Of a stretch of 36,813 bases of DNA, positions 2,694 through 36,353 are shown piece by piece. The stretch is from the NCBI GenBank assembly GCA_964420625.1, contig CAYQUB010000001.1, forward strand, positions 1-36,813. The letters run 5' to 3'. Source of the stretch: an uncultured Bacteroidales bacterium (GTDB lineage: Bacteria; Bacillota_I; Bacilli_A; ML615J-28; CAG-698). Numbering within the stretch: position 1 is the first letter of the stretch; each line of letters starts with the position of its first letter. The notes under the pieces are model-generated. The model worked only from the letters and a program-made list of their open reading frames with translations, made no database searches and had not been told where the DNA came from. The position numbers were made by a program, and so were the translations under genes.

Positions 2694-2722
2694 GGTGAAA
2701 AAATAAATAATCGGGTCAAATG

Positions 2723-2752: not shown

Positions 2753-2759
2753 CGGGTTT

Positions 2760-4974: not shown

Positions 4975-4976
4975 CT

Positions 4977-5672
4977 TTAGAAACCGTCCATCATTTTGGT
5001 AAACTTCTGGTAGCCTTCAAGGTTAAAACATTGCGCATGGGCATTTTTGGAAAGGGCTCCCCGAACAAAGGTCAAATGGGTGTAATAATCGAAATATCGA
5101 AACGACGGGCTGTTCATGATGAACCAGTGCTTGGAAATGGCTTCTTTCCAAAGTTCGAAACCATCGCCGCAGTTCACATAGACATAAGGGTCAAAGCCCT
5201 CGCGGTCCTCCCAGTTCTCGGCGAAATACACCGGCGCCCAATGCGGGGTTCCGGGGATCTTGCCGCCCATATCCAAAGCCGCCCAAAAAGCCGCGTTAAT
5301 GACGATCCGGTTAGTCGCCGCATGATCTTTGTGCATGGAGTTTTTCCAATGAGTGAAGATGATGTTCGGGCGGTATTTCCGAATTAAGGTCGCGACTTTG
5401 ATCCGGGCTTCGGCGTTGTCCGGCAGTTCTCCGTCTTGGTAGTCAAGCACCACCGCTTCGCCATGCAGCATCGCCGCGAAGGTTTCGGCTTCTTTCACTT
5501 TTTGAATCCGGTAATCGGCGACGGACATTCCTTTGGGGTTGCCCCGTTCGCCGGCGGTCAGCGCCAAAGTGATGATCTTATCGCCCTTTAAAGACTGAGC
5601 GGCCAAAACGCAACCGGCGGTCAGTTCCATGTCCCCAACATGGCCGCCGATGGCCAAAAAGGTTTTATTCAT
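4977..5672 (-). CDS. PIG-L / LmbE family N-acetylglucosaminyl deacetylase
   Basis: 231 aa. The N-terminus FLAIGGHVGDMELTAGC matches the metal-binding H-x-D-D-like region, and HKDH lies further downstream. The start overlaps the GNAT stop in an ATGA arrangement. Confidence 0.75.
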   Translation of the reverse strand: MNKTFLAIGGHVGDMELTAGCVLAAQSLKGDKIITLALTAGERGNPKGMSVADYRIQKVKEAETFAAMLHGEAVVLDYQDGELPDNAEARIKVATLIRKYRPNIIFTHWKNSMHKDHAATNRIVINAAFWAALDMGGKIPGTPHWAPVYFAENWEDREGFDPYVYVNCGDGFELWKEAISKHWFIMNSPSFRYFDYYTHLTFVRGALSKNAHAQCFNLEGYQKFTKMMDGF

Positions 5673-8637: not shown

Positions 8638-9942
8638 CTAAAAATGGCACGTTTCGATCAAATGATCGTATGATTCGCGGTTGATGGCGATGTTGGCTTC
8701 TTTTTTGTTTACGAAGACCACGGCTCCCCGCACCAACCCGTTATAATTCATGGACATGGAATAGCAATAAGCCCCGGTGGAATAAACCACGACCGTATCC
8801 CCGTCCCGGGCTTCCGGGATCGGTATGTCTTTGGCGATGATGTCGCCCGATTCGCAACATTTCCCCACCACGTCATAGACCTTGGTTTCTTGGTTGACGG
8901 GATAATTGGCCCGGTTGGCGATCTCCACCGTATATTTGGCCTGATAAAGCGCCGGGCGGATGTTGTCAGCCATGCCGCCGTCAATGAACAGATAATTTTT
9001 TCCGCCCACGGTTTGTTTGGTTCCCCCGCAACGGTACAAAGTAAATCCCGAGTCGCCAACCAGACTTCGTCCCGGTTCGATCAATAACTTTTCCAGCTTG
9101 GTCGCATATTTTTTGTTCAGGATTTCGACGGTTTTGACGATCTTCCCCAATATGTATTCCAAATTGATTTCTTGATCGTCATCCAAGTACTTGATTCCAA
9201 ACCCGCCGCCCAAGTTCAAAACCCGGATGCTCACTTGATGGGCATCTTGGTATTTTTTGATGAAAGCCATCATCGTTTTGGCTTCTTTGGTAAAGAAACT
9301 CGGGTTGCTGACCTGCGAACCGATGTGCGCATGAAACCCGTCCAAAACCAGATAAGGGGAATCAGCATAGGCCTTGGCAATTTTTTCGATCATGGCTTCG
9401 TCATAGATCGATTCCCCGAATTTCGAAGACAGAAGCGCCGTTTGAATGTAAGCATGGGTATGGGCGCTGATTCCCGGATTGACCCGAAACAGAGTGTGGA
9501 CCACCGTTTTTTTGATTTCAGACAAATGCTTCAGTTTTATCAGTTCCGAATAATTGTCCACGACGATGTATTCCACTCCCAGAGAAATCCCCTGTTCCAA
9601 TTCTTCATCGGATTTGTTATTGCCGTGCAAAACGATGCGGTGCGGGTCAAACCCGCTTCTTTCGATCAGATGCAGATCGCCCGCGCTGACCGCGTCGATC
9701 CCAAAATGATGATCGTTTAAGATATGACATAAACGCGGGGCCAAAAAAGCTTTGGAGGCATAGATCACCTCGCAAGCAAAATGGGGGCTTTGGAAATAAG
9801 TCTCAAAGATCCGGATCTTTTCTAAAATCCCGATTTCGTCATAAACGTAAAGCGGGGTTTTAAAAGTCTGGGCGAGTTCGGAGAGTTTTCTTTCCCCAAC
9901 ATACAATTCGCCGTTTATATTTTGCATTGGTTTTGTTCTCAT
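8638..9942 (-). CDS. lysA: Diaminopimelate decarboxylase (PLP-dependent, alanine racemase-fold decarboxylase)
   Basis: 434 aa. Motifs are IYASKAF (PLP lysine), HGNNKS, GGGFGIKY, EPGRSLVGDSG, CESGD and GAYCYSMSMNYNG. The start ATG overlaps the dusB stop (ATGA). Confidence 0.8.
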   Translation of the reverse strand: MRTKPMQNINGELYVGERKLSELAQTFKTPLYVYDEIGILEKIRIFETYFQSPHFACEVIYASKAFLAPRLCHILNDHHFGIDAVSAGDLHLIERSGFDPHRIVLHGNNKSDEELEQGISLGVEYIVVDNYSELIKLKHLSEIKKTVVHTLFRVNPGISAHTHAYIQTALLSSKFGESIYDEAMIEKIAKAYADSPYLVLDGFHAHIGSQVSNPSFFTKEAKTMMAFIKKYQDAHQVSIRVLNLGGGFGIKYLDDDQEINLEYILGKIVKTVEILNKKYATKLEKLLIEPGRSLVGDSGFTLYRCGGTKQTVGGKNYLFIDGGMADNIRPALYQAKYTVEIANRANYPVNQETKVYDVVGKCCESGDIIAKDIPIPEARDGDTVVVYSTGAYCYSMSMNYNGLVRGAVVFVNKKEANIAINRESYDHLIETCHF

Positions 9943-12284: not shown

Positions 12285-15200
12285 ATGAGGAAAATCTTGC
12301 TGTTTTTAACCTTTCTCTTTGCTGGTGCGTTCCTTGTAGGATGCTTTCAGCCCAAAAATGTTGTAACGTCAATCGAAGTTGTCAGTGATACCACGGAATT
12401 TGATGAAAGCTTTCAACTTGCCGACCTCAATGTAAAAGTTAACATGTCCGACGGATCCAGCAGTCTGGTTCCGTTAAGCGAGAGCATGCTGAGCACCGAA
12501 GACTTAGCCAAGTTTTCGACGGAAGGCACGCATACAATCAATGTTTCATATCTCAACATGGCGGCCGCGTTCACCATTACCATTACCGGTGAACCGGGAG
12601 CAGACGGAAGAGAAATTGAAGTTCAAGTCGCCGGCGGCTACATTCAATGGCGATATGAAGGCGATGCCGCCTGGACCAATTTGATTGCTTTGTCCGCCCT
12701 GATGGGACCGGCCGGGACCAATGGGACCAACGGAACAAATGGCACGAACGGAACTAACGGCCGAGAGGTTGCATTTCGGATCGATTCCGGATTCATCCAA
12801 TGGCAATATGTTGGCGATGCGAACTGGATTAATCTATTGGCCTTGACCGTCATCACCGGCCCGGCCGGAACTAATGGGACTAACGGAACGAACGGAACGG
12901 ATGGGATCACGCCAACGATCTCCGTCAGTCAGGACGGTTATTGGGTCATCAACGGAACCGTAACCGCTTATAAAGCTTCGGGAACTTCGGAAACTCCGGC
13001 TTTTTACACCGTGACATTTGAAGTCAACGGCGGCGTCTTGCCACAAGGCGTTCTCGCGGTCTTGGCGGATGTTCCGGAATGCACGACTATCGCTTTGCCT
13101 ATTCCAACCAAAGACGGTTATGTTTTCAATGGCTGGTGGACGGGAGAAACCGCCAATGACGGACAGTTCACCAACTCCACGCCGGTCACCAAGAATGTCA
13201 CGCTCTATGCGCGTTGGATCCTTGATACCGCTCCGATCCGGGAATTGATGAACGTCACCCGATCGATGAACTATACCGCTCAGATGAATGTTACGGTCGA
13301 CTTCACGATGGGTTTGCAGACCGGAAGTTTCGAGATGCTCTCCGATTTCCAAATCAATAAAACCGACGGGATCATCTTCACTTACAATGTTGATTCCGAA
13401 AAGTCTTTCCAAAACGGAGTCGAAGATCCGGATCAAGCCACTTATGAAGAACGGCACACCGTTTACCGTTCTGGCCAGATCTTCACCATGTGGCGAAGTG
13501 ATCCATTAGGATCCTGGCAAGTCGACCTATGGGAAGGCAATTACGAGAATGATGATTTCTCCTTTGCTTTCATGGATGTTTCCAAGTTCACCAAACGCGA
13601 AGGTCTCGACATTTACGATTATCCGCTAGAACAAGAAATGATCGACCGGATGGTCCAAGGCATGGAGTTTGGAAACGCCATGGTGATCGGAGAAGTTCAG
13701 TGCTATTTGGAACTGGCCCTGAAGAAGATCACCATCGTCCTGAACATTTCCGGAACCACTCCGGATGATCAGCCGGCTACCGGCGTCGTCACGATGTCCA
13801 TGGCTCTTTCCAACATCGGAACGACCACCGCCGAAATGCCTTTGGCCGATGTCATCGCCGGGGGAGTCGCCCGGGTTGACGAAATGGTAACGGAGATTCC
13901 TCAAGTCAATTTCGCAGCCACCGATTCTTTGAGGGATTTTAACGAACTCGTCGCCGAAGCAAAAGCGGCCATTAATGCCGCCACCAACGTTTTCGATGCC
14001 ATCGGGATTTCTGCTTCTTACTTGAATGAATTGCAAAATTTCAGGTTTGACATCGATTGGCTGAAGCAAGCCAAATATGACGCTCTGCAAGAAATGGAAT
14101 ATTTTTTGGAAGAACAAAGCTTTTTTGCGACTGCTGACAGCGTCATCGCGATGACTGCCGTTTACGATGAATTGAAAATCTTCATCGAAACCGCGATCAG
14201 CGGTGAAGAGATCTCCTTAATTAAAGATGAATTCTACAATCGGATCGACTTGGCCTTTGACTCCGATGAAACCAAGGTGGCTTTGTTGGGGGCTCAGGAC
14301 CGTGCCGTCGACTTTTTGAGATACTATTTCATCTACCTGCAGCCTTACTTCCTGAACTCGAATGACCTGTATTCGTTCTGGGGCGTGTTTGATACTTACG
14401 AGCAATTGATCAGAACCACAACCGCCATCGAGCAAGTTGATCCAATCTTCCAGGCGGGCATTGCTGCTTACACGGCTTTGGGCTTGAGTTTCGCGGATAC
14501 CGCTCCGCTAAGGGAACAATTCCTTCGCGATCTGGAAGATCTGCATGACATGGCATTAGAGATGTTCGGAGCCGTTGAGGCCGTTGATGCTGCTTACCTG
14601 GCTTACATCGCGAACATCAATGCGGCTACCGACCCGATTCTCATGGTCTCGGTTTTCGGAAACGGATATTGGGATATGCGCGGTTTGATGACTTCGGCTT
14701 CGACCGCGGCCGCGCTTCTTAAATTGGCCGAGATCCGCGATGAATACGCTGCCCTCGTTTTGGTCAGCTCGATTCCGCTTCTTAATGAGTTATTCGATAA
14801 CTACACCGTCATAATCAATGCTTGCCATGATTTCTGGGAGCCGATGGGTTATCTCGGTCAATTCCAGAATGATTGCAACCTTTATCTGACCTTCGACCCG
14901 TTAAAGCTGCAGATCGCCGACTGTGTCAGAGAATTAGAATTTACGTTCAATAACAATTCCTACATTGCCACCGCGGATAGCCTTCTGGCCATGCAGGGCG
15001 TTTTGGATGTTCACATCCCAATCGTTCAGGGCAGCACGACTGATGTAGAATTAACCAATAATTTTACGGCCGCCTTAATGGCTTTGGATGATGCCTTTGT
15101 GCCTGATCCAACAAAAATTGAATTGATCAACAGCATTCAGGGAGCCATTAACCAAATTAGGGTTCATGCTGACTTCTTATATGACTTCATTAATCCGGAA

Positions 15201-15548
15201 GTCATGAATCAGATCGAAGCCATCTCCGAAGAAGCCGTCAGCCAATTGCGTTCGGCCGATACCCTGGCGGAAGTAGTCTTGATTTATGACACTTGGTACG
15301 CCAACCTTCAGACTTTGGACCTGACTCCGAGCGCTTACGCTTTAAGACAATGCAAATTGGAAATGCTTAATGAACTGGAGTTCTTGCATGAATTCATCCT
15401 TGCCAACATCGATCCGCTTCCGGTCGATTTCGAACTTCATTATGAAGCTTATGTAACCGGCATTGAAAATGTAACCGGCATTCTGGAATTCCATGACATC
15501 ATCGAGGCCTTCCGGGAAGAATTTAACGGGTATTATTTGGGCGCTTAG
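12285..15548 (+). CDS. Large surface lipoprotein with an Ig-like domain, two collagen-like GTN repeat units, a Listeria-Bacteroides repeat and a long acidic helical repeat region
   Basis: The signal peptide has a lipobox (MRKILLFLTFLFAGAFLVGC). An Ig-like segment follows (VTSIEVVSD...THTINVSYLNMAAAFTITI). Then comes a duplicated unit IQW(R/Q)Y.GDA.W.NL.AL...GPAGTNGTNGTNG... A Flg_new-type repeat is present (YTVTFEVNGG...KDGYVFNGWWTGE...VTLYARW). A C-terminal region of about 550 aa holds two copies of a roughly 280-aa module marked by ATADS(V/L)(I/L)AM. Confidence 0.8.
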   Translation: MRKILLFLTFLFAGAFLVGCFQPKNVVTSIEVVSDTTEFDESFQLADLNVKVNMSDGSSSLVPLSESMLSTEDLAKFSTEGTHTINVSYLNMAAAFTITITGEPGADGREIEVQVAGGYIQWRYEGDAAWTNLIALSALMGPAGTNGTNGTNGTNGTNGREVAFRIDSGFIQWQYVGDANWINLLALTVITGPAGTNGTNGTNGTDGITPTISVSQDGYWVINGTVTAYKASGTSETPAFYTVTFEVNGGVLPQGVLAVLADVPECTTIALPIPTKDGYVFNGWWTGETANDGQFTNSTPVTKNVTLYARWILDTAPIRELMNVTRSMNYTAQMNVTVDFTMGLQTGSFEMLSDFQINKTDGIIFTYNVDSEKSFQNGVEDPDQATYEERHTVYRSGQIFTMWRSDPLGSWQVDLWEGNYENDDFSFAFMDVSKFTKREGLDIYDYPLEQEMIDRMVQGMEFGNAMVIGEVQCYLELALKKITIVLNISGTTPDDQPATGVVTMSMALSNIGTTTAEMPLADVIAGGVARVDEMVTEIPQVNFAATDSLRDFNELVAEAKAAINAATNVFDAIGISASYLNELQNFRFDIDWLKQAKYDALQEMEYFLEEQSFFATADSVIAMTAVYDELKIFIETAISGEEISLIKDEFYNRIDLAFDSDETKVALLGAQDRAVDFLRYYFIYLQPYFLNSNDLYSFWGVFDTYEQLIRTTTAIEQVDPIFQAGIAAYTALGLSFADTAPLREQFLRDLEDLHDMALEMFGAVEAVDAAYLAYIANINAATDPILMVSVFGNGYWDMRGLMTSASTAAALLKLAEIRDEYAALVLVSSIPLLNELFDNYTVIINACHDFWEPMGYLGQFQNDCNLYLTFDPLKLQIADCVRELEFTFNNNSYIATADSLLAMQGVLDVHIPIVQGSTTDVELTNNFTAALMALDDAFVPDPTKIELINSIQGAINQIRVHADFLYDFINPEVMNQIEAISEEAVSQLRSADTLAEVVLIYDTWYANLQTLDLTPSAYALRQCKLEMLNELEFLHEFILANIDPLPVDFELHYEAYVTGIENVTGILEFHDIIEAFREEFNGYYLGA
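12705..12905 (+). repeat. Coding tandem repeats: two runs of 9-bp GGN-ACN-AAY (Gly-Thr-Asn) collagen-like triplets within a duplicated unit of about 150 bp
   Basis: Run 1 (12705-12761) encodes GPAGTNGTNGTNGTNGTNG. Run 2 (12858-12905) encodes GPAGTNGTNGTNGTDG. The stretches before each run are also similar to each other (IQWRYEGDAAWTNLIALS / IQWQYVGDANWINLLALT). Confidence 0.8.
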
Positions 15549-20559: not shown

Positions 20560-20656
20560 ACGAATTCCGTCAACGAAATCAACGGCTTCGGGAATTGCCT
20601 ACTTTCTTTTTTTTCACTTAATTGGTATAATGAAGAAGTGCTCTCGGAGGTTCATC

Positions 20657-20917
20657 ATGGCTGACAAAAACCGAACCAATTCCCAGATAAAATGTTCGCT
20701 GATCAACGGAAACCGGATCCTATCCATTGAATCGGAAAGCGAGAAATCGCCCCGGAACGTGGCGGTGATCCAGGACGGAAACCAGTCCGTTCTTTTCCAA
20801 GGCAATCAGCTTTTGACTTCTGAAAAAGTCTTCGAGTCTTTTTTGCAATCGGTCGATCCGGCTTCCGTCAAATACCTGGTCTTTTACCCGACCGAGTTCT
20901 TGCCGACGGATTCATGA
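20657..20917 (+). CDS. N-terminal fragment of a metallo-beta-lactamase-like (flavodiiron-type) domain: a separate small ORF or a frameshifted 5' part of the next gene
   Basis: I set the start at the ATG at 20657 (MADKNRT), which follows GGAGG by 7 nt. The track start at 20630 lies inside the TGgTATAAT -10 element (20626-20631). The ORF ends ..VKYLVFYPTEFLPTDS*, and its TGA overlaps the next ATG (ATGA). Confidence 0.5.
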   Translation: MADKNRTNSQIKCSLINGNRILSIESESEKSPRNVAVIQDGNQSVLFQGNQLLTSEKVFESFLQSVDPASVKYLVFYPTEFLPTDS

Positions 20918-22677
20918 AAGTCTTCGGAACTCATGATCTGCATCCGATCATCGTCACCGATGCCCTGACCGCCGGAACTTGGAAAGATTATTCGCCGGAA
21001 GCCGAATTCTTTGTCATCGATGAAACCATGCGGCTGGAGCTCAGCCCCAGCCATGTTTTGCGTTTCATCCGCACGCCGTTCTTCGGAAGCCCGAATTCGT
21101 TTCTGACTTATGACGATACCAGCCATACGGTCTTTTCGGGAGATCTGTTCTCGGCTCCCCGCTTTCCGGGAGCCGCGGAAAACGATCCTTTAAAAGCCAT
21201 GGCCATGGCCCATGAAAAAATCCTTCCGAGCAGCGACTTTCTGAAACCGATCATCAAAACTATCAAAAAATTGGAAATTGATATCATCATTCCGAATTTC
21301 GGGCCGCTCATCGTCAAAGATGAAGTCCGGAAAACTTTGGATTTTTTACAAACCCAAATTTTTTACAACAGCAGCATCTTGGTTAAAAGTTCCACTCAGA
21401 ACCGCCGGATCTACGATTACGTGACTTTGGGCAATCAAGTCATCGCCCGTTTAAAATCCCTGTACAGCAAAGAGGAAGTTCTTCGGATTTTCCAGGGCAC
21501 TCCGATCGCCATTGATCCGGAAACGATGGAGATCACCGGCACGCTGCTTCCCGGTTATAAATTCTGGAATCAGCTGTTTGAAGTCATCTTCAATAAAAAA
21601 GGTCCGGAATGGCTGGTGGTTTTGGAACCGATGGTCAATAAACTGGGCCGAACCTACAACATCAAAAAACCGGCCGTTTATTCATCATCGCTGATCACAT
21701 CGAAATTCGAAAACATCGCTTTGCAATCGAAAGTAAACTATCTTCAGGATAATTTGGACCGGGCCACCGATAAACTTCTTCACGATCCGGTGACCGGGGC
21801 CTACAATGAATATTTCTTAAGAAACTATTTAAGCCAGCACATCGCCGAAGCGAACCAAACCAAATCCTCCGAGGACTTCGCGCTGCTTTTCATTGACATT
21901 GACAACATCCGGAAACTGAATCTCATGTATTCCAAAGAGACCGGCAACGAAACGATGCGCAACTTCCATTATCTTCTCAATCAGATCAAAGATGAAAACC
22001 AGATGGTCTTCAAACGCAACGGGCCGGGTTTTGTGCTCTTCTGCGCCAAAAGCACTTTTGAGGAAGCCGTCAAAAAAGCCAATCGGATCCGCAACGCCGT
22101 CGCTGATTCCGATTCGTTCGTGGAAAAGATCACCGTTTCGGTCGGGATAACCCGTTTTCTGGAATTCACTTCCTCTGAACGCCAGGCCGAAGGCTTTTCG
22201 GAGATTATCTATGACCGGGGCGAGACCCGGGTCAAGACCGCTTATTCCAAAGGCCAAAACCGGCTGATCGACGAAAAAACCAAGAACGTCTTCCTGTCGA
22301 TCGGAAAGATCCTGATCGTCGATACCGACGAGATCGTCCAAAACATCTTCTCCAACGCCCTGAAAAACAATTTCTATGAAGTCGTGGTCGCCAAAAACGG
22401 CATCGAAGCCTTAAGCGCTTTTGATGCCAATCAGATCGATTTCATCATTTGTGAAAAAAACATCCCGAAGCTGGACGGATTCAAACTGAAAGCCAAGCTG
22501 AACGAAACGCCCGAGACCCAAACCATTCCGTTCGTGCTGACCACTTTCAACAAAAATCTGGCCATCGTCAATACCGCCAACGAACTGAACGTTGATTTCA
22601 TCCTCACGAAACCGCTCATCATCGAAGAAGTCGTCGGTCTCGTCAAAAGGATCCTTTCCCGGAGAGCCCATCCATGA
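20914..22677 (+). CDS. Multidomain signalling-like protein with the rest of the metal-site-less MBL-like domain, a coiled coil, a degenerate GGDEF domain and a C-terminal pseudo-receiver
   Basis: LRFIRTPFFGSPNSFLTYDDTSHTVFSGDLFS resembles the L.FI.TP..HWPDS..TY....LFS.D.FG block of flavodiiron MBL domains but lacks the histidines. The GGDEF-like region is DPVTGAYNEYFL...LLFIDIDNIRKLN...VFKRNGPGFVLF, with no GG(D/E)EF. The REC-like region is KILIVDTDEIV...DFIICEKNIPKLDG...FVLTT...ILTKP, with Glu at the phospho-acceptor position. Confidence 0.75.
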   Translation: MKVFGTHDLHPIIVTDALTAGTWKDYSPEAEFFVIDETMRLELSPSHVLRFIRTPFFGSPNSFLTYDDTSHTVFSGDLFSAPRFPGAAENDPLKAMAMAHEKILPSSDFLKPIIKTIKKLEIDIIIPNFGPLIVKDEVRKTLDFLQTQIFYNSSILVKSSTQNRRIYDYVTLGNQVIARLKSLYSKEEVLRIFQGTPIAIDPETMEITGTLLPGYKFWNQLFEVIFNKKGPEWLVVLEPMVNKLGRTYNIKKPAVYSSSLITSKFENIALQSKVNYLQDNLDRATDKLLHDPVTGAYNEYFLRNYLSQHIAEANQTKSSEDFALLFIDIDNIRKLNLMYSKETGNETMRNFHYLLNQIKDENQMVFKRNGPGFVLFCAKSTFEEAVKKANRIRNAVADSDSFVEKITVSVGITRFLEFTSSERQAEGFSEIIYDRGETRVKTAYSKGQNRLIDEKTKNVFLSIGKILIVDTDEIVQNIFSNALKNNFYEVVVAKNGIEALSAFDANQIDFIICEKNIPKLDGFKLKAKLNETPETQTIPFVLTTFNKNLAIVNTANELNVDFILTKPLIIEEVVGLVKRILSRRAHP

Positions 22678-23987
22678 TCATCCCTTATCAAGTCATTGTC
22701 TGGATCCTGGAGGGCTTGGGGGCCATCGCCGGCCTATTGATCATCGTCATTTTTCTGAACAAACTGCTTTTGCGTTACCGGATCTGGGAATCAAGACAAA
22801 TCAAAAAATATCTGGTGGCGAAATACCTTCAGAAACAATCCATCCAGAAGCATTTCTCAAAACGCAAACTGACCGACGAATTCATCAACATTTGCGAACA
22901 GACCGAACTTGATGACGACACCCTGGCTACGGTCGTCGCGGATTTCGACCGGCAGCAGATCATTGCTTATCATCTTTTCCGTCTGAATTCGCTTAAACCG
23001 ACCGTCCGGAAAGCCTCCGCTCATTACCTGGCTTTTTTTCGAAGCCGAAAAGCTTTGGACGGCTTGAAAAAGCGGCTGGTCATTGAAAAAAACGACAGCG
23101 TCAAGCTCTACCTGCTTAACTCGCTCAAAACCAATCTGGACGAATCGGTGGACATCATCATCGAAAGTTTGGTCGGTGCCAGCGCTTTTTACCGGCGCCG
23201 GGCCATCGAGATCATCACTCATCATCACAATCGTTTCAGTTACGCCATACAGGCGGCTTTGAACCGCAGCGAGTTTGAGATCAAAGAATTGGTCGCCGCT
23301 TTCGCGGCCGGTTACAAAAACGACGATCTGAAAGCCTATTTGCAAAAAGAACTGATCAGTCTCGAAGCCTTCTATGACGGCAACCAATCCAATCAGCTGC
23401 GGTACGATCCTTTAAAATTCAACGTTGACGCCTACTACTTCTCGATCTTGCGAACGCTGGTCGACGTTTATGACGAAAACATTTTCGTTGACCGCTATCT
23501 CACCCATTCGAAAAGCGAGGTTCGCCGGATCGTCATCGACGCCAAGAGCAAACGCGAAAACTTCGATGGCATCAAAAGCATTTTGGAGGGCTGCGACGGC
23601 AGCGACATGGATTTCTACCGGGTCGAAGTGATCACCAGGATCGCCGAGATCAACCGCGATTATTACCTGAACCTGGTCAGCATTTTTCAAAATCCCGGCC
23701 ATGTTCACCAACAAAAAGTCATTGCGTCGGTCCTGTCCTTCCGAACCGAGTACCTGATTTTGAAACTAAGTTCGCCGCAGCGGACCCAGATCATCGAATC
23801 CCTGAAACTTCTGGTCAGTTTCGGACTGACCGCCGACTTGATCGACTTCATGAACCAAAACAAAGATTTGGGGATCGAAAATGATTTGTTTCAGATCCTA
23901 AAGATCTATTATTCGGCTGACGAAAGGCTGAAAAAAGAACTGCACGTCTATTTGCGGCCCGAGATTTTGAAACGCATGGGAATCTAA
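22674..23987 (+). CDS. Membrane-anchored HEAT/ARM-like repeat protein
   Basis: An N-terminal TM helix is present (VIVWILEGLGAIAGLLIIVIFL). All-helical repeats follow, with HEAT-like strings: TVRKASAHYLAFFRSRKALDGLKKRLVIEKNDSVKLYLLNSL, AFYRRRAIEIITHH and SEVRRIVIDA. The ATGA start overlaps the upstream stop. Confidence 0.6.
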   Translation: MIIPYQVIVWILEGLGAIAGLLIIVIFLNKLLLRYRIWESRQIKKYLVAKYLQKQSIQKHFSKRKLTDEFINICEQTELDDDTLATVVADFDRQQIIAYHLFRLNSLKPTVRKASAHYLAFFRSRKALDGLKKRLVIEKNDSVKLYLLNSLKTNLDESVDIIIESLVGASAFYRRRAIEIITHHHNRFSYAIQAALNRSEFEIKELVAAFAAGYKNDDLKAYLQKELISLEAFYDGNQSNQLRYDPLKFNVDAYYFSILRTLVDVYDENIFVDRYLTHSKSEVRRIVIDAKSKRENFDGIKSILEGCDGSDMDFYRVEVITRIAEINRDYYLNLVSIFQNPGHVHQQKVIASVLSFRTEYLILKLSSPQRTQIIESLKLLVSFGLTADLIDFMNQNKDLGIENDLFQILKIYYSADERLKKELHVYLRPEILKRMGI

Positions 23988-24062
23988 AAAGAAACCTACG
24001 CGGCTCCGGTTCGGGAACGATCAAAAGTCGAAAAAAAGAAAGTTCAGTGGCTTAGGCGCCTT

Positions 24063-25568
24063 TTGTTCGTGGCTTTAGTTTTCTTTCCAATCGTTTTTTT
24101 GATCCGTTACAACCTGGGGCTGCTGTCCAAAAGCCTTTTGGAGATCCTGATTGCTTACGCGGTTGACATCAACTATTACATCGTTTTCTATTACGTCGCC
24201 GTCAATCTGATCTACCTTCTGCTGGTTTTGTTATCGATGAGTGGATCCCGGGAACAATCCCGTTTATGGAGTTTTAAAAACAAAAACATGCTTTTTGAAT
24301 CGGAAATGCTGTCTTCGATCTCCATCATCGCCCCCGCTTACAACGAGGAACTGTCCATCATCGACAGCGTCAATTCCCTGCTGAACCTAAATTATCCGCA
24401 GTATGAAGTCATCGTCGTCAATGACGGCTCAAAAGACAAGACCCTCCAAAAACTGATCGAATATTTCAAACTGGAACGCAAAAACCTCATTGTTTCCCAA
24501 AAACTGCCGACCATGCACGTGCGCGGCGTTTACCGAAACAAACTGACTCCATATCTGACCGTCATCGATAAAGACAACGGCGGAAAAGCCGATGCCCTGA
24601 ATACCGGCATCAATTATGCGGTCAGCGAATACATCTGCGGAATCGACGCCGATTCGATGTTGGAAGTCAATTCCCTGCTCAAACTGATGTCCGTGACCAT
24701 CGATCACAAATATCCGACCATTTGTTTGGGCGGAAACATTTTCCCGGCCAACGGCTGCGAGATCGACCGGGGCCAGGTCGAAAAAAAAGGCCTTCCGAAA
24801 ACTTTGATCACCAGACTTCAGGCCATCGAATACCTGCGGGCCTTCACGTCCGGACGGATCGGCTGGGCCAAACTGCGGTCGCTTCTGATCGTTTCCGGGG
24901 CCTTCGGTTTATTCCACCGGAACACCATGATCGAAGCCGGGGGTTACCTGACCAGCAGCGGCATCTTCAAAAAAGACACGGTCGGCGAAGACATGGAATT
25001 GGTCGTCCGGCTGTCCCGGAAAGCCCTGGAAGAAAAAAAGCCCTACCAGATCGACTACGTTTACAATGCTCATTGCTATACCGAAGTACCGAATGACTGG
25101 AAGAGTCTGTTCAAACAGCGCGACCGCTGGCATCGCGGCCTCATCGACATTCTCTCCTTCCATCGCCATCTGATCTTCAACCCGCGGTACAAAACCGTCG
25201 GGACCGTCGGCTTGCCCTATTTCCTCATTTTCGAAATGATCGGACCGCTTTTCGAAGCGCAGGGTTACCTCATGCTCATCCTGTCCATCGTTTTCGGACT
25301 GCTTGATCTGAACATCCTTTTGGCTTTGTTCTCGGTATCGGTCATGATGGGGATCATCGTCTCTCTGCTTTCGCTTCTGGCGACCGAGCGGGAATCCAAA
25401 TATCTGGGTTTTTCGGACACTTTGACTTTGGTAATCTTCGGGATCATCGAAAATCTCGGCTACCGTCAGCTCATGAGTCTGTACCGGGTCAAAGGATACT
25501 TCTCCGCCATGCGCGAAACCGGGCTTTGGGGAACCGTCACCCGCCGCGGCTTCAAAAAAAACAAATGA
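24063..25568 (+). CDS. Processive family-2 glycosyltransferase (PgaC/IcaA/NodC-like polysaccharide synthase) with N- and C-terminal TM segments
   Basis: Motifs are IIAPAYNEE..., VIVVNDGSKD, NGGKADALNTG, GIDADS, GEDMEL and QRDRWHRG (the QxxRW motif). There are two TM segments before and three or more after the catalytic domain. The start is TTG, with only a weak ribosome-binding site. Confidence 0.85.
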   Translation: MFVALVFFPIVFLIRYNLGLLSKSLLEILIAYAVDINYYIVFYYVAVNLIYLLLVLLSMSGSREQSRLWSFKNKNMLFESEMLSSISIIAPAYNEELSIIDSVNSLLNLNYPQYEVIVVNDGSKDKTLQKLIEYFKLERKNLIVSQKLPTMHVRGVYRNKLTPYLTVIDKDNGGKADALNTGINYAVSEYICGIDADSMLEVNSLLKLMSVTIDHKYPTICLGGNIFPANGCEIDRGQVEKKGLPKTLITRLQAIEYLRAFTSGRIGWAKLRSLLIVSGAFGLFHRNTMIEAGGYLTSSGIFKKDTVGEDMELVVRLSRKALEEKKPYQIDYVYNAHCYTEVPNDWKSLFKQRDRWHRGLIDILSFHRHLIFNPRYKTVGTVGLPYFLIFEMIGPLFEAQGYLMLILSIVFGLLDLNILLALFSVSVMMGIIVSLLSLLATERESKYLGFSDTLTLVIFGIIENLGYRQLMSLYRVKGYFSAMRETGLWGTVTRRGFKKNK

Positions 25569-25598
25569 AAATCGCTATTTTTCAATAGCGATTTTTTG
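25568..25598. terminator. Bidirectional terminator between convergent genes
   Basis: An ATCGCTATT-TTTC-AATAGCGAT hairpin has a T-run on the plus strand and an A-rich flank upstream. It sits between the stops at 25568 (+) and 25601 (-). Confidence 0.6.
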
Positions 25599-25600
25599 AA

Positions 25601-26410
25601 TTATAAGTAATCGTCGTAAATGTTCTTCTGCCATCTTTCGCTGGCCAAGAACTCGGTATCGTCTTTTTCGCGTTTGATCTTCGAATAATGTTTGGTCCCG
25701 CGGGCCACGACTTCATAAGAAGTTACTTTCCCGAGGGTCGAAAGAACGTTTGTTACCATTGAAAAGTCGAACGACGAGCAGGAGAAAATATCGAAATAAA
25801 TCAGTTTGTCATCGTAATCATAATGCAAGGCGATGTGGCTTTGGGCGATCAGGATGATCCCGGACAGATAATGGGTTTTGTTGACGGTGCTCTTGATGAC
25901 GAACGGCCGGGTGATCGGCGTCATGCCGATCTCATAAACCAGTTTCTCCAAGAAATCAAACATGTTTTCCATGGTGATCCGGTTCTCGTAAGACAGCTCG
26001 GCCATGACATGGGGGCCGAAATCTTCTTTCGGATCATACGGGAGCGTGTTGAAGACATTGATGTCCCGGTCCCGGATCTCCAGCGTCGAGATCGTTTCAT
26101 TGTACGGGAGTTTTTCCAGAAGGTAGTTCTTCAAAACTTCGGTATCGAAATCCTCGGAAAAAATGTCAACGAAATAGCATTGGCGAAACGGGAAAGTATG
26201 AATGGTGATGTGTCCGCCTTCCAAAAAGACGAACGAGCTGATGCCGTCGTCTTCTTTGACTTTTCCGTAATAATACGGAACCAGCGACGGCGGCGCCACC
26301 GGGGTGAGTTTTAAGACATAGGGGATTTCATTGACGATTTTATTGATGTAGCGGATGTCATCGAGCAGGGTTTGCGTGGAACCGTAGCAGTCCAACATGA
26401 CATGTTTCAT
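25601..26410 (-). CDS. Tandem-duplicated S-adenosylmethionine decarboxylase-like (pyruvoyl enzyme fold) protein; candidate arginine or ornithine decarboxylase
   Basis: 269 aa, made of two halves of about 130 aa that each resemble class 1 AdoMetDC. Half 1 reads HVMLDCYG...GISSFVFLEGGHITIHTFP..YFVDIFS. Half 2 reads PHVMAELSY...LSGIILIAQSHIALHYD..IYFDIFSC. The start overlaps the agmatinase stop (TAATG). Confidence 0.7.
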   Translation of the reverse strand: MKHVMLDCYGSTQTLLDDIRYINKIVNEIPYVLKLTPVAPPSLVPYYYGKVKEDDGISSFVFLEGGHITIHTFPFRQCYFVDIFSEDFDTEVLKNYLLEKLPYNETISTLEIRDRDINVFNTLPYDPKEDFGPHVMAELSYENRITMENMFDFLEKLVYEIGMTPITRPFVIKSTVNKTHYLSGIILIAQSHIALHYDYDDKLIYFDIFSCSSFDFSMVTNVLSTLGKVTSYEVVARGTKHYSKIKREKDDTEFLASERWQKNIYDDYL

Positions 26411-27306
26411 TAATCTTTTCCTCCAATTTTAGGTGTTTTTGCGCATAACGATGCGAATACTTCATAAAGCAGTTTTAAGGCCGTCCAGGACGTGATGTCG
26501 TTGCTATCCAGTTTCGGCGACACTTCCATGATGTCCATGGCTTTCACCGGCAGGTTTTCCACCAAAAAAGTCATGATTTGTAAAGCTCCTTGGGAAGTGA
26601 TCCCAAAGGCTTCCGGCGTTCCGGTCCCCGGCGCGAACGACGGATCGATGGCATCAATGTCCAAAGACAGATAGACTTGGAAACGTTCGTCAAACTTGTC
26701 TTTTAAATGACGGATGGCCTCAAGTCCGAATTCATTGATTTTGGATGCTTTGATGACTTCGATCTCCGGATGCTCGGAAAACAGTTCCAGTTCCTGAAGC
26801 TCAAATCCCCGCCCGGCGAGCAGAACAATGTTCTCGCTTTTGTATCCCCGTTCGATGGCCCGGAAATTCGGGCAGGCATGGGAGAATTTGCTTCCGTCAT
26901 AAACATCGCAGATGTCGGGATGAGCATCGATGTGGATGATGGCCGGGATTTTGCCGTCCCGGATCGATCGGTCGTAAAAAGCCGCTTCCAGGGGAATGGA
27001 ACAAGAATGATCCCCTCCGAAGAATACCGAGAATTTATGAAGATCCAAAATCCCGGCGGCTTTGGCTTCGATCTTCGAAAACGGCGTGCGGTTATGGCCG
27101 ATGTTTCCAAAATCATACAGTTTCAGAGAGGTCAGATCGATCCCTTCTTTGGAAGCCGGAGGAAGATATCCGGATAGTTTTCGGATCCGGCTCGGGGCTC
27201 TTCCCGCGCCTTTTCCCACCGAAGCGTTGCGATCCAGGGCAATGCCCGCGATCGTCACGTTGGCTTTTCCCAAATCTTCGGTCAATAAATCTCGCCAAGG
27301 TTTCAT
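26410..27306 (-). CDS. Agmatinase / ureohydrolase family protein
   Basis: 298 aa with all the Mn-binding motifs: GGDHSCSIP, IHIDAHPDI and LSLDIDAIDPSFAPGTGTPE, plus MEVSP near the C-terminus. Confidence 0.8.
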   Translation of the reverse strand: MKPWRDLLTEDLGKANVTIAGIALDRNASVGKGAGRAPSRIRKLSGYLPPASKEGIDLTSLKLYDFGNIGHNRTPFSKIEAKAAGILDLHKFSVFFGGDHSCSIPLEAAFYDRSIRDGKIPAIIHIDAHPDICDVYDGSKFSHACPNFRAIERGYKSENIVLLAGRGFELQELELFSEHPEIEVIKASKINEFGLEAIRHLKDKFDERFQVYLSLDIDAIDPSFAPGTGTPEAFGITSQGALQIMTFLVENLPVKAMDIMEVSPKLDSNDITSWTALKLLYEVFASLCAKTPKIGGKD

Positions 27307-31220: not shown

Positions 31221-32450
31221 TCAGTCTTGGCCAACCACGGCGTAATGGACATAAATGTTTTCACAAGCCGCAAGCATCGTTGTTAAATTGGCCAGATTGG
31301 CGCTTGGCGTGTAGATGTAATTTAACTTCGTGCACCAGCTAAACACGTGTTTGCCAAGCGACATGACGCTGCTCGGCACCACGATGGAAGTCAGTTTGCT
31401 GTTACCCCAGAAACCCCAAGCCCCAATGGTTGTGACCGTTGATTCCAAAGTTATGCTGAGCATTCCGGTGCAGCCGCTGAAAGCCGCTTCGCCGATGACC
31501 GGCGTCGGTATGACGATCGAGGACAACATCGTGCAGGCATTGAAGGCCTCGGTGCCGATGGTTAAAACGGAGACCGGAATGTTGACCGAAGTCAGATAAA
31601 CGCAGCCCGAGAAAGCTTGATTTCCGATGGCGGTGATGCCTTCCGGAATGGTAACGCCGGTTATGTCATCGTTGTTCAGAAAAGCTCCGTCCCCGATGGT
31701 GGTCACCGGAAGACCGTTGTAAGTTGCCATGATGACAACTTCCGGGCTGGTTCCGTCATATCCGCTCACCGAGTAAGTTTCCCCTTCGAGAACGTAGATG
31801 ACGCCCAGATCATCCTGGTCATACAAGGCCGTGACACTCAGGTCCCGGGTCACATCCAAGAAATCCTGATTCCAGCCCAGAAAGATATATCCTTCCCGAA
31901 CCGGATCGGCGGGAGCAGCGGCATCCGCTCCGTATTCCACCGTTTCGGTCTTGAGAATCGTTTCGTCATGATCAAAAAAGGTAACTTGATAAACATTGAT
32001 GGCATATAAAGCGTTGACGGTCAAATCGCCTTTTACATCGTTAAAGCCAATGTCCCAGCCGGTAAAAACATGACCCAAAACGGCGGTCGGGACCGGAGCG
32101 ACGGCGGCTTCCCCATACGCGACCTCCTGAGTTTCGATGACCGTGCCATCAAAGGCTTTGAAGGTCACGGTAAACATTAAGCTCTCCCACTTGGCAAAAA
32201 GAGTCAGATCCTTTTCGATGAGGGATTGGTTGGTGTACTCGGCTTGGTTTTCGTCAAACCAGCCCAGAAAAACATAACCTTCCTTTTCGGGAGTCGGCAG
32301 GACCGAAATCGCCGTGCCTTCCAAGGCGGTCATCGGAGATATTTCTCCAGCTCCGCCGGTGTCGAAAGTTACGGTATATTCTTGGCTCTGGCATCCCGCC
32401 AGCGACAGCAATAAAGTAATGATGATAAGGGCAATACTTATTTTTTTCAT
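31221..32450 (-). CDS. Surface lipoprotein with three Listeria-Bacteroides (Flg_new) repeats and a BspA-type leucine-rich repeat domain
   Basis: The lipobox signal peptide is MKKISIALIIITLLLSLAGC. Three repeats follow of the type YTVTF....EGYVFLGW......LTLFAKW. LRR_5-like repeats come after them (ITAIGNQAFSGCVYLTSVNIP, VLTIGTEAFNACTMLSSIVIP, VTTIGAWGFWGNSKLTSIVVP). The stop lies only 22 nt upstream of the ABC gene start. Confidence 0.8.
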   Translation of the reverse strand: MKKISIALIIITLLLSLAGCQSQEYTVTFDTGGAGEISPMTALEGTAISVLPTPEKEGYVFLGWFDENQAEYTNQSLIEKDLTLFAKWESLMFTVTFKAFDGTVIETQEVAYGEAAVAPVPTAVLGHVFTGWDIGFNDVKGDLTVNALYAINVYQVTFFDHDETILKTETVEYGADAAAPADPVREGYIFLGWNQDFLDVTRDLSVTALYDQDDLGVIYVLEGETYSVSGYDGTSPEVVIMATYNGLPVTTIGDGAFLNNDDITGVTIPEGITAIGNQAFSGCVYLTSVNIPVSVLTIGTEAFNACTMLSSIVIPTPVIGEAAFSGCTGMLSITLESTVTTIGAWGFWGNSKLTSIVVPSSVMSLGKHVFSWCTKLNYIYTPSANLANLTTMLAACENIYVHYAVVGQD

Positions 32451-33875: not shown

Positions 33876-34106
33876 ATGAAAAAAGGAATTCATCCGAAAT
33901 ACAACACCGTAACGGTTGTTTGCACCACTTGTGGCAGCACCTTTGAAACCGGATCGGTTTTAAAAGAGATGCGGGTCGACACTTGCTCAAAATGTCATCC
34001 GTTCTACACCGGGCAGCAAAAGTTCATTCAAGCGGCTGGCCGGGTCGAAAGATTCAATAAACGCATGGCTCAAAAGCAAGAGCCAAGCCCAGACTCAAAC
34101 AAATAA
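33876..34106 (+). CDS. rpmE: 50S ribosomal protein L31 (zinc-ribbon type A)
   Basis: MKKGIHPKY...[14 protein letters not shown]...[36 protein letters not shown] ribosome-binding site is present. Confidence 0.9.
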
Positions 34107-34122
34107 GTTTGAGTTTTTTTGT
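34093..34122 (+). terminator. Rho-independent terminator of rpmE
   Basis: An ACTCAAAC-loop-GTTTGAG hairpin spans the stop codon and is followed by a T7 run. Confidence 0.6.
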
Positions 34123-34133
34123 TCTTTTTTTCA

Positions 34134-34171
34134 TTTTATTGGACATTCCAAATTAAAAATGTCCAATAAAA
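34134..34171. repeat. Perfect 13-bp inverted repeat (TTTTATTGGACAT / ATGTCCAATAAAA), with a third ATTGGACAT copy at 34190-34198
   Basis: Read directly from the sequence. The spacer is 12 nt. The repeat lies between rpmE and the 3' end of the deaminase-fusion gene. Confidence 0.5.
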
Positions 34172-34245
34172 ACTTATTTTAAATCTTTCATTGGACATTT
34201 TTTGCAAGAAATGGCTTAAAATCAAATAAAATCTTCAATACTCGA

Positions 34246-35730
34246 TTACTTCAATAATTTATATCGTCTTCCTCTATTGTCGCCTTCTGCACCTATCAGT
34301 CTCAGTTCCACCAACCGATTTAAATCTCGATAAGCGGATTTTAGGTCTCTCCCAGATTCTTTCGCATATTCTGTCTTTGTTGTGATTTTCCTCAGTTTCA
34401 AATATTGATAAGCAAAGAATTCATTCTCGTTCAAAGAAGAAAACACTCCATTAAGCGACTTTTGATAACTCTTAAAGGATCTATAAAAGGTTACAATTAA
34501 ATTGGGGTTGTTAAACTCGATATTTGGGTTATACAGAGCCTTCTTCGAATCAAATAATAAATTTTTAAAGCATTCCATTCCCTTTCTGTTTCCTTCATAA
34601 AAATGTATTTTCGAAAACAAAAAAGATAGTTTTGGATTACGCTGCAAAGTTGGCGCAGAAAAGTCCCGTAACTGGTCAATTGAAATTGGCGGAGTTGGAG
34701 ATCCGGGACTAAGTACCTCAATTTTGTCATTATCTATCGAAATTCGAATTTGGGCATCTTCTCTGCTATAATCCCGATGAATCACCGCATTTAAAACCGC
34801 TTCGCGTAAGGCTCTCAAAAGTGGTTCCGATCCGGTTAGCCCACTTACGACAAATTGGGAATTAACCACTGTTGAAAGCCATTGGAAAACTGCCTGAATC
34901 TCCAAGATCAACGGTCCAGAAAATGATTTGTTTGAACCGAAAGCAGAAGCTTTTATTTCGAATTGGGGGCATGTTTGGGAAGGAAATTTCCCAAACAGCA
35001 AAACTGCTGTTCGCGAAAAAGTATGAATGGCTTTTCCATTTTTCGACTCATTGTTTGTTATTCCGGAAATTTCCAAAAAATGCCAAAAATCCGGAGAATC
35101 ATATTCGGTTTTTGAACCCGAAAGTTCAAAATATTTTTGAAAAGCATCTTTTGAAAAATCTGAATAAAAATCCATCTTCGGAACAATTACATCAAGGTAA
35201 TGGACTTTCCCGTTTTCTTTTTGTTTTGTGTCCTCAAAATAAGCCCGCAAAGAAGCATCATCCAGAAAAGCTCGATTTTCATTAATTATTTCTTCTTGAA
35301 GGTCCTTGTCAAACATTTCAACTGCTATTCCATTATCCAATAAATACTCGTGTCCTTTTCCCGAGACAGAGGGATGAGGGTCTTGTATTCCCATGTATAC
35401 TTTTTTAATCCGTGCATTAACTATTCTTTCGGCGCAGGGAAGTTTTCCTTCTCCACGTGAATTGGGCGCACACGGTTCCAAAGTTGCAAACAAAATTGCT
35501 TCCTCAAGCTTCCTTGTTCGAAGTTTCTTATCAATTAGAGTGTATTCAGCATGATCGCCGGATCGAAATTCCCCCCGATATGCGGATTCCATTGTACCAT
35601 CATCAAAAAGAATAACCGCACCAACTTTTGGGGGAACCTTTCCGTCTTTCCTTTTTTCACAGCTTGACTGTTTCATGACATTTACCGCCAATGTCATGGC
35701 TTCTCGGATCTTTTTCTGATCATTAATCAT
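34246..35730 (-). CDS. Fusion protein with an N-terminal RibD-like zinc deaminase domain, a partial AlbA_2 region, an HATPase_c_4-type domain and a C-terminal winged helix
   Basis: Deaminase motifs are GDHAEYTLI and TLEPCAPNSRGEGKLPCAERI...VYMGIQDPHPSVSGKGHEYLLDNGIAVE. Then come ..TAVLLFGKFP..SGPL.., LREAVLNAVIHRDYS, IEVLSPG, LQRNPKL and YEGNRKGM. The C-terminal HTH-like region is ITTKTEYAKESGRDLKSAYRDLNRLVELRLI. I set the start at the ATG at 35730 (MINDQKK), which is preceded by AAGGGGGA. The track start at 35769 lies next to a TGtTATAAT -10 element (35775-35783). Confidence 0.75.
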   Translation of the reverse strand: MINDQKKIREAMTLAVNVMKQSSCEKRKDGKVPPKVGAVILFDDGTMESAYRGEFRSGDHAEYTLIDKKLRTRKLEEAILFATLEPCAPNSRGEGKLPCAERIVNARIKKVYMGIQDPHPSVSGKGHEYLLDNGIAVEMFDKDLQEEIINENRAFLDDASLRAYFEDTKQKENGKVHYLDVIVPKMDFYSDFSKDAFQKYFELSGSKTEYDSPDFWHFLEISGITNNESKNGKAIHTFSRTAVLLFGKFPSQTCPQFEIKASAFGSNKSFSGPLILEIQAVFQWLSTVVNSQFVVSGLTGSEPLLRALREAVLNAVIHRDYSREDAQIRISIDNDKIEVLSPGSPTPPISIDQLRDFSAPTLQRNPKLSFLFSKIHFYEGNRKGMECFKNLLFDSKKALYNPNIEFNNPNLIVTFYRSFKSYQKSLNGVFSSLNENEFFAYQYLKLRKITTKTEYAKESGRDLKSAYRDLNRLVELRLIGAEGDNRGRRYKLLK

Positions 35731-35912
35731 CAATCTTTCCCCCTTCCAAATTATTCCAATTGTTTTCAATTTGGATTATAACATAATAGCAAAAATAAAG
35801 AAATCTTTTTTAAAATTAAAAACTCACAATTTTCGGAAATTTCCCATAGATATTTATGTTTCTCAAAACTTTTTTCGTTTCTCAGTCTTAGAAATTTGTT
35901 AAACCGGATTTT

Positions 35913-36353
35913 TTAAACCTTCCGAACGGATTTATCATAATCCGCCGCGACCCATTTCTTGCCCTTTTGAATGATCTGGTGTCCCTCTTGCTCCAACCGG
36001 CGTTTGTGTTCGGCGATCCCGCCCGGGAACCGCTCGTTCAGTTCGCCCTTTTTCTTTAAAGTCCGCCAATAAGGGGTGATGTCGTCCGACCCCTGCTTCA
36101 TTCTTTTCGCGAAGGCATGAGCCGCCGAATTGGCAAAGATGCGGGCGGACATTCCCGCCGTTTCGTCGGCTCCGTGCTTTCGGGCCAGATAAAGGTTGAT
36201 CTCCTCATAGGTGATCAGTTGACCGGGTCCGGCCAGGCGCATCGCTTCGTCGTATTCCAGAGGCGAAGGAAGAATGACTTTTCGGCCTTCATTTTCTTCG
36301 ATCCGCGGAAAACCCTTGGTTCCCCGAAGCATTTCCTCATCAGTTTTTCCCAT
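35913..36353 (-). CDS. MGMT-family DNA-binding protein lacking the acceptor cysteine (alkyltransferase-like)
   Basis: 146 aa. LITYEEINLYLARKHG...SAAHAFA...ITPYWRTLKKKGELN matches the O6-alkylguanine transferase DNA-binding domain pattern (G.v.tY..iA....aaRaVG.A....iPcHRVv...G). PYWR sits where PCHR normally is. Confidence 0.6.
   Translation of the reverse strand: MGKTDEEMLRGTKGFPRIEENEGRKVILPSPLEYDEAMRLAGPGQLITYEEINLYLARKHGADETAGMSARIFANSAAHAFAKRMKQGSDDITPYWRTLKKKGELNERFPGGIAEHKRRLEQEGHQIIQKGKKWVAADYDKSVRKV

Follow-up and report, generated by a model that had tools for sequence, protein, structure and literature searches.

An apparently disrupted two-gene operon joins pseudo-enzyme signaling domains to a HEAT-fused processive glycosyltransferase in an uncultured bacterium

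Synthase-dependent exopolysaccharide systems are textbook targets of cyclic di-GMP (c-di-GMP) control. Here, we analyzed a plus-strand module built around a family 2 glycosyltransferase (GT2) on contig CAYQUB010000001.1 of an uncultured Bacteroidales bacterium (assembly GCA_964420625.1; GTDB lineage Bacillota_I, Bacilli_A, ML615J-28, CAG-698). The whole stretch that was analyzed, 36,813 nucleotides (nt) long, is referred to as the window. The module had originally been predicted to consist of four open reading frames (ORFs) that couple pseudo-enzyme signaling domains and a membrane HEAT-like protein to a processive polysaccharide synthase. The four ORFs, here named A to D, were recovered at the predicted coordinates (Table 1), with ATGA overlaps between ORFs A and B (20914-20917) and between ORFs B and C (22674-22677). 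As predicted, ORF D (the GT2 ORF) shares the frame of ORF C; the 75 nt from the TAA at the end of ORF C to the TTG of ORF D contain no stop codon. This TTG is the sole possible start of ORF D and has a weak AGG upstream.

The predicted boundary signals were also present. The TGgTATAAT box ahead of ORF A lacks a good -35 element, and for this reason it was not listed by a consensus promoter scan. At the other end, the terminator-like hairpin is common to the module and a convergent S-adenosylmethionine (AdoMet)-decarboxylase-like gene. The domain assignments held as well: ODP, GGDEF, Response_reg, and Glycos_transf_2 matched above the Pfam cutoffs, and HEAT_2 fell below its cutoff but the corresponding region formed a solenoid in the structural model.

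Table 1. Features of the module in window coordinates, with dN/dS (Nei-Gojobori method) between the window and metagenome contig L086
Feature	Coordinates	Strand	dN/dS	Description
Extended -10-like box	20623-20631	+		TGgTATAAT, read directly; same in L086
Shine-Dalgarno sequence	20647-20651	+		GGAGG, ahead of the ATG at 20657
Gene 1, regulator	20657-22677	+		ODP-like, linker, degenerate GGDEF, pseudo-receiver; ancestrally one ORF of ~670 amino acids (aa), here ORF A + ORF B
ORF A	20657-20917	+	0.04	86 aa; ATG six bases after GGAGG
ODP-family domain	20729-21349	+		Flavodiiron-type metallo-beta-lactamase (MBL), across the A/B split; Pfam PF19583, 61 bits, cutoff 27.2
Lesion 1	20909-20917	+		One T gone from a TTT run (~20911); L086 GATTTCATGAAG vs window GA-TTCATGAAAG
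ORF B	20914-22677	+	0.11	587 aa
Degenerate GGDEF	21778-22264	+		Pfam, 50.9 bits; signature NGPGF, I-site position DENQ
Pseudo-receiver (REC)	22309-22669	+		Pfam PF00072, 57 bits, cutoff 30.2
Gene 2	22674-25568	+		Transmembrane helix, HEAT-like solenoid, basic linker, processive GT2 synthase; ancestrally one ORF of ~950-1000 aa, here ORF C + GT2 ORF
ORF C	22674-23987	+	0.10 (HEAT part)	437 aa
Lesion 2	23985-23987	+		TAA (window ATC TAA AAA) vs GAA, Glu (L086 ATC GAA AAA); G to T substitution
Former interdomain linker	23988-24062	+	0.12	KETYAAPVRERSKVEKKKVQWLRRL; still open in frame, conserved
ORF D (GT2 ORF)	24063-25568	+	0.06 (GT2)	501 aa; TTG start
Bidirectional terminator-like hairpin	25568-25595			12 bp; A-run and T-run on flanks
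Flanking genes			0.03-0.12	

In fact, the module comprises two genes rather than four, and a single point lesion interrupts each of them; the operon is translationally coupled, with the start of gene 2 overlapping the end of gene 1 by ATGA. Metagenome contig L086 matches the window at 91% identity, with synteny over 13 kb, and it carries both genes intact as single ORFs, so the module was not upheld as a unit of four. Compared with L086, lesion 1 introduces a TGA stop, with what looks like an ATGA overlap, and the seeming start of ORF B corresponds to a Met codon inside the intact gene. Thus, the ATGA "chaining" of ORFs A and B is a by-product of a frameshift beside an internal Met codon. Lesion 1 is the only nontriplet coding indel in the 13-kb alignment. 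ORFs A and B together align without gaps to single-ORF homologues, and a Bacilli metagenome-assembled genome (MAG), among the nearest relatives of ORF C, has one uninterrupted ORF (at least 648 aa) for ODP, GGDEF, and REC. Residues 25 to 231 of the joined A+B product are colinear with residues 22 to 237 of PDB entry 6qrq across the A/B junction, and the split divides a single MBL fold in two. At the site of lesion 2, position 23985 belongs to a sense codon in relatives. In a second contig related to ORF C, the HEAT-like region continues into the GT2, with ACG opposite the TAA of the window.

The lesions left no visible decay in the module. Between the window and L086, dN/dS ranged from 0.04 to 0.16 across it, similar to the flanks (Table 1). 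With values as low as those of its neighbors, the whole unit was evidently under selection through nearly all of the divergence, and the lesions are therefore either recent or errors. Could both be sequencing or assembly errors, so that an intact and active two-gene operon with the same function is present? Lesion 1 is a homopolymer deletion (TTT to TT), a classic error type, and both the undisturbed dN/dS and the conservation in frame of the linker past the TAA would be expected in that case. However, lesion 2 is a G to T substitution and not a homopolymer indel. In addition, no further frame-breaking difference was found over 13 kb against L086, nor in the other ~28 genes of the window, which look intact with full-length domain matches. 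Two independent random errors would both have to fall in a 4.9-kb operon of a 36.8-kb window, for which we estimate P at ~0.02. Double error is thus unlikely, though it is the most probable of the alternatives. Because one lesion is a transversion, the remaining sequence is clean, and two errors in this operon are improbable, the lesions are probably real mutations. In this genome, the module is most likely inactive or strongly hypomorphic, and the operon should be annotated as two disrupted (or mis-sequenced) genes rather than as four ORFs.

Four other accounts of the interrupted frames were rejected. Reading TGA as Trp in the frame of ORF A (an alternative genetic code) gives a sequence unrelated to the homologues; a programmed frameshift at the A/B junction has no slippery heptamer, and the comparison with L086 shows a plain T deletion; designed stop-codon readthrough at 23985 does not fit the GAA read by L086; and a long-standing pseudogene is incompatible with dN/dS values that are as low in every segment as in flanking genes.

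To place the operon among its relatives, one genome per species was scanned with a GT2 alignment, and the resulting loci were subjected to a scripted domain scan. HEAT and GT2 were fused in all loci that cover both (33/33), and the four-ORF state was seen solely in the window among 34 loci. ODP and REC were encoded in one ORF in 24 loci, and one MAG was frameshifted. At three further loci (L004, L021, and L023), the regulator consists of degenerate GGDEF and REC alone (~330 aa), without ODP; L021 and L023 keep the acceptor Asp, unlike the ODP-containing forms. The typical layout is a single ODP-linker-GGDEF-REC ORF followed immediately by a single transmembrane-HEAT-GT2 ORF. This gene order, whose loss in homologues would have spoken against the original prediction, was kept in every homologous locus examined, and a conserved module linking pseudo-enzyme signaling domains and a membrane HEAT protein to a processive GT2 synthase was thus borne out. 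The same cassette, with a 4-nt overlap, occurs in Desulfosporosinus acidiphilus SJ4, Acetobacterium wieringae, and Petrotoga sp. SL27, and the same two genes are adjacent in Eubacteriaceae bacterium ES2. Overall, the pair is widespread and recurs across several bacterial groups, most of whose members are anaerobes. The cassette stands alone, with neighbors that vary between genomes. An exhaustive HMMER search with the HEAT-like domain returned ~143 clusters, most of them of 940 to 970 aa with HEAT and GT2 in one chain. In an Acholeplasmatales MAG (L022), the regulator is split by a frame change between GGDEF and REC (5516-6256 vs 4266-6119), which may have arisen independently or may be a fault of the MAG. 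At locus L001, positions 1-130 are a palindromic duplication of its own sequence at the contig start, probably an assembly artefact, and for this reason the fused protein P0002 looks N-terminally truncated.

More distant GT2 relatives (40 to 44% identity) were found in Gemmatimonadota, Bacteroidota, Myxococcota, Acidobacteriota, Actinomycetota, Thermus, Clostridia, and others. Here, a separate HEAT ORF of ~370 to 400 aa lies directly upstream of the GT2 in 50 of 53 loci, usually with a receiver or double-receiver protein directly upstream of the HEAT ORF in turn. The receivers of these triads have the canonical acceptor Asp, which is carried by 42 of the aligned receivers. In one HEAT-GT2 protein (P0069), residues 1142 to 1221 at the C terminus match a receiver domain weakly (24.7 bits, under the cutoff), a possible hint that receivers act directly on this synthase.

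A third conserved gene, not present in the window, accompanies the cassette in at least 9 loci. It lies downstream of the GT2 in L013 (9500-12646), L088 (10027-13194), L008, L009, L010, L012, and L015 and upstream of the regulator in L017 to L019. Its product (~1050 to 1230 aa) has one N-terminal transmembrane anchor and, in a large extracytoplasmic part, glycoside-hydrolase-like motifs; a Pfam search of the product gave no match. Its N-terminal part is homologous to a C-terminal extension of the HEAT-GT2 protein P0030 (27% identity, E value of 2e-40), which suggests a functional link between this gene and the cassette.

The product of gene 2 is one membrane protein. Its N-terminal transmembrane helix is followed by a HEAT solenoid in the cytoplasm, then by a basic linker, and finally by a processive GT2 that is integrated in the membrane and is of the hyaluronan, chitin, poly-N-acetylglucosamine, or cellulose synthase type. 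For ORF C, the HEAT_2 match reached 23.3 bits against a cutoff of 27.7, and distant orthologues match HEAT_2 at 4e-22. The AlphaFold model of ORF C (pLDDT, the mean predicted confidence per residue, of 89.9) shows one long N-terminal helix, assigned to the membrane, and then ~24 paired helices forming an alpha-solenoid. The top Foldseek matches of the model were karyopherins, CAND1, AP2, and beta-catenin, with a probability of 1.0; the predicted fold is thus a generic HEAT/ARM solenoid. ORF D matched Glycos_transf_2 at 80 bits, and Pfam GT2 families scored above their cutoffs. Its motifs VVNDGS, GIDADS (DAD), VGEDME (GED), and KQRDRWHRG (QRDRW) are invariant in the family alignments. Hydropathy revealed two N-terminal and at least two C-terminal transmembrane segments. 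A fused homologue (P0006) was modeled with a pLDDT of 90.4 and a predicted TM-score of 0.89. In a fold search, its GT2 half matched hyaluronan synthases (TM-score of up to 0.63, target-normalized), the cellulose synthase BcsA, and chitin synthases. A sequence search of the PDB with the GT2 gave generic N-terminal GT-A matches only.

This picture was weighed against the possibility that the GT2 is not a polymer synthase. In that case, the enzyme would glycosylate a lipid carrier or teichoic acid, or would build short oligosaccharides as NodC does, with the HEAT domain serving as a scaffold on which the cell envelope is assembled. Low-score generic GT2 matches to undecaprenyl-phosphate and teichuronic-acid transferases, a NodC score of 56.8 bits, and the lack of adjacent polymer-modifying or export genes are in line with such a role. 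However, the QRDRW motif and the C-terminal transmembrane bundle are present, and the best family matches are PgaC/IcaA. Moreover, the homologue model resembles the three classes of polymer synthase named above, and in some relatives the cassette is joined by the large extracytoplasmic protein that bears glycoside-hydrolase-like motifs, an addition also seen in exopolysaccharide operons. A nonpolymer function is therefore improbable. As had been predicted, no deacetylase, PilZ domain, or export gene adjoins the module in the window. Neither PgaD/IcaD nor PgaB/IcaB-type deacetylase partners were found in the flanks of the window or in the neighborhoods of relatives that were examined.

The product of gene 1 is a soluble regulator with an ODP-type diiron-sensor fold, a linker domain, a GGDEF domain without active site or I-site, and a C-terminal receiver. 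By fold, it belongs to the ODP and receiver families; by its sequence, the functional residues are missing in the window's clade. The diiron ligands of the ODP domain are replaced in the window (FYPTEF, FFGSPN, FSGDLF, and IPNFG, compared with HHQDPD, LHFPG, SSDLFG, and PQHGS in relatives). With respect to the diiron ligand motifs HxDxD, H..H, D, and H, THQDPD is changed to YPTEFL, HFLHS to PFFGS, and PQHG to PNFG in the window. The ligands are lost in the clade of the window and intact in L005, L008 to L011, L013, L014, L017, L018, L027, and L028; in Eubacteriaceae ES2 (L013), the Pfam ODP match reached 2e-62. PleD was the best PDB and NCBIfam sequence match of the GGDEF and REC part. In the alignment with PleD, NGPGF stands opposite GGEEF and DENQ opposite RAID. 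The GGDEF signature is degenerate in every family member (NGPGF, RGPSF, HGATF, and others). In the receiver, a Glu aligns with the phospho-acceptor D53 of PleD (DFIICEKN), and the conserved Thr and Lys are retained; within the fused subfamily, 24 of 26 receivers have Glu at this position. Gene 1 is thus a clean example of three "dead" signaling folds (MBL, GGDEF, and REC) that are reused together.

The original prediction had looked to PssE, YdaK, and PelD for precedent. According to this explanation, four separate functional proteins are made, and the degenerate GGDEF is a c-di-GMP receptor that activates the GT2. A degenerate active site beside a GT2 does resemble these systems, the ATGA overlap could permit reinitiation at ORF B, and distant relatives encode HEAT and GT2 as two proteins. 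However, PssE-type receptors are defined by an RxxD I-site, placed five residues upstream of the signature (PMC4125290). R..D at the I-site position was found in none of the 22 relatives aligned, nor in the window, and the precedent thus fails for the whole family. Among the 34 loci, the four-ORF state is confined to the window. Furthermore, the A/B boundary cuts one MBL fold, and initiation of the GT2 would depend on a TTG alone, behind a weak AGG and 75 nt past a stop. Taken together, these points make c-di-GMP activation of four separate proteins very unlikely.

We therefore favor a lesioned two-gene operon with receiver-HEAT-synthase control and, in intact relatives, ODP input, to which as a whole we assign a probability of about 0.6. 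In this proposal, the receiver end of the regulator would dock on the HEAT solenoid in intact relatives, and the solenoid, sitting on the synthase, would switch polymerization on or off. The synthase itself would translocate the polymer, in which case no export gene would be needed. In relatives with intact iron ligands, the input would probably be O2 or iron status, perceived via ODP. Anaerobes would then make a protective, probably N-acetylhexosamine-containing, polymer on exposure to oxygen. The proposed link to oxygen draws on several observations. The ODP ligands are intact in many relatives, and the named cultured hosts (Acetobacterium, Desulfosporosinus, Desulfitobacterium, Petrotoga, and Anaerobium) are anaerobes. 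In Petrotoga sp. SL27 (L089), the cassette is directly preceded by genes for rubrerythrin and desulfoferrodoxin (3667-4678), which fits an oxidative-stress context. In Treponema denticola, ODP is an O2 sensor (PMC7666581).

Several points weigh against this interpretation. The lesions could be sequencing errors; looked up in public assemblies, the exact products of ORFs B and C have no record there that would corroborate them. HEAT and GT2 are separate in distant relatives, so that the split gene 2 is not necessarily dead. The metal ligands of the window's own ODP are lost, so that even a repaired copy could not sense O2. We infer the receiver-HEAT contact from gene neighborhood and one weak domain fusion. 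Finally, with regard to the identity of the polymer, the best named family of ORF D is PgaC/IcaA (TIGR03937), at 114.4 bits against an equivalog cutoff of 422.3.

A wider history may also be proposed. The distant triads, with separate HEAT proteins and Asp receivers, and the P0069 fusion point to an old control chain running from receiver to HEAT to GT2. In the Bacillota/Spirochaetota/Thermotogota branch, the HEAT domain would have become fused to the synthase, the receiver would have lost phosphorylation (Asp to Glu), and the input would have been taken over by the ODP sensor via a nucleotide-blind GGDEF fold. As a tentative generalization, which is possible rather than probable, processive GT2 synthases in many phyla may be controlled by a receiver through a HEAT adaptor, separate or fused, instead of by c-di-GMP. 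In anaerobic Bacillota, Spirochaetota, and Thermotogota, a phosphorylation-independent Glu receiver, driven by ODP through the nucleotide-blind GGDEF, might then provide oxygen-triggered polymer synthesis. If this is true, a widespread class of receiver and HEAT adaptor adds a second regulatory logic beside c-di-GMP, and where ODP is intact, strict anaerobes have a direct link from oxygen or iron sensing to matrix production. The family is testable, since it is present in the culturable Acetobacterium wieringae, Desulfosporosinus acidiphilus SJ4, Petrotoga, and Eubacteriaceae ES2.

Elsewhere in the window, the module is flanked by ABC transporters and by polyamine-related genes (AdoMet-decarboxylase-like and arginase/agmatinase-family). 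The polyamine-related genes lie on the minus strand at 25601-27306 and 8638-9942. They encode a 269-aa protein with two AdoMet-decarboxylase-like stretches, an Orn/Arg/DAP decarboxylase, and an arginase/agmatinase-family protein just under the agmatinase equivalog cutoff. The AdoMet-decarboxylase-like gene is convergent beside the GT2 in relative L001 too, and L086 is syntenic with the window across the polyamine genes. A minus-strand run at 738-6652 contains genes for a GH20 hexosaminidase, GHL10, an LD-carboxypeptidase, a PIG-L-family N-acetylglucosamine deacetylase, and a tandem-GNAT protein. Located ~15 kb away from the module and not conserved together with it, this run resembles a cluster for the recycling of amino sugars or peptidoglycan. 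At 12285-15548 and 31221-32450, there are large ORFs resembling surface proteins, which contain Listeria-Bacteroides repeats (Flg_new) and leucine-rich repeats of the BspA type. The G+C content is 0.37 at 34001-36000, compared with ~0.48 elsewhere; an ORF at 34246-35769 combines a cytidine/dCMP-deaminase domain with a HATPase_c_4 domain, and this region may be a foreign or defense-related island. Rfam and tRNA scans of the window gave no matches.

Among known systems, Listeria PssC/PssE, Bacillus subtilis YdaM/YdaK, and Pseudomonas PelF/PelD resemble the module in that a dead GGDEF protein is encoded beside, and presumably regulates, a polysaccharide glycosyltransferase. Unlike PssE, YdaK, and PelD, the GGDEF of the module lacks an RxxD I-site, is soluble, and is placed between an ODP fold and a C-terminal pseudo-receiver. 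Furthermore, the synthase of the module bears a HEAT solenoid, and the window offers it no BcsB-like protein, hydrolase, or deacetylase as a partner. With PgaCD/IcaAD, NodC, and the hyaluronan and chitin synthases, the module shares a GT-A core with DxD, GED, and QxxRW as well as N- and C-terminal transmembrane helices; processive GT2s were the best NCBIfam and Foldseek matches of its GT2. In contrast to PgaCD/IcaAD, the GT2 falls far under the equivalog cutoff (114 vs 422 bits) and has neither PgaD/IcaD nor a deacetylase. A transmembrane-anchored N-terminal HEAT domain of ~430 aa is found in the synthase of the module alone among these enzymes. By motifs and fold, the module thus belongs to the processive membrane-integrated GT2 class, and the sequence scores set it apart from a PgaC/IcaA equivalog.

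The regulator was compared with three further systems. The ODP of Treponema denticola (TDE2498), an oxygen-binding diiron chemotaxis sensor, is likewise a PF19583 protein, colinear through 6qrq, and its ligand motifs recur in many relatives of gene 1. The ODP of the module, in contrast, is fused to degenerate GGDEF and REC domains and coupled to a synthase rather than to a chemoreceptor, and its iron ligands are lost in the window's clade. Regulators of the PleD and WspR type have the same REC and GGDEF domains, whereas in gene 1 the order is reversed (GGDEF and then REC), a Glu stands in for the acceptor Asp, and the A-site and I-site are gone. Since these three features are lost, the product of gene 1 is expected to be neither a cyclase nor a phospho-switch. 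In Staphylococcus aureus, the membrane-anchored GdpS uses a degenerate GGDEF as a protein-recruitment module and recruits a lipid kinase (PMC11962490). Although GdpS has no ODP, REC, HEAT, or GT2 partners, it sets a precedent for a GGDEF fold that works via protein-protein contact and not via nucleotides. As originally predicted, the combination of domains does not correspond to a described exopolysaccharide system: within a partial coverage of the literature, no published description of a HEAT-GT2 fusion, an ODP-GGDEF-REC protein, or a receiver-HEAT-GT2 triad was found, so that "undescribed" is provisional, and database names are generic only (for example, "glycosyltransferase family 2"). Thus, the module is conserved and apparently uncharacterized, and it appears to be a new variant of the synthase-dependent exopolysaccharide systems.

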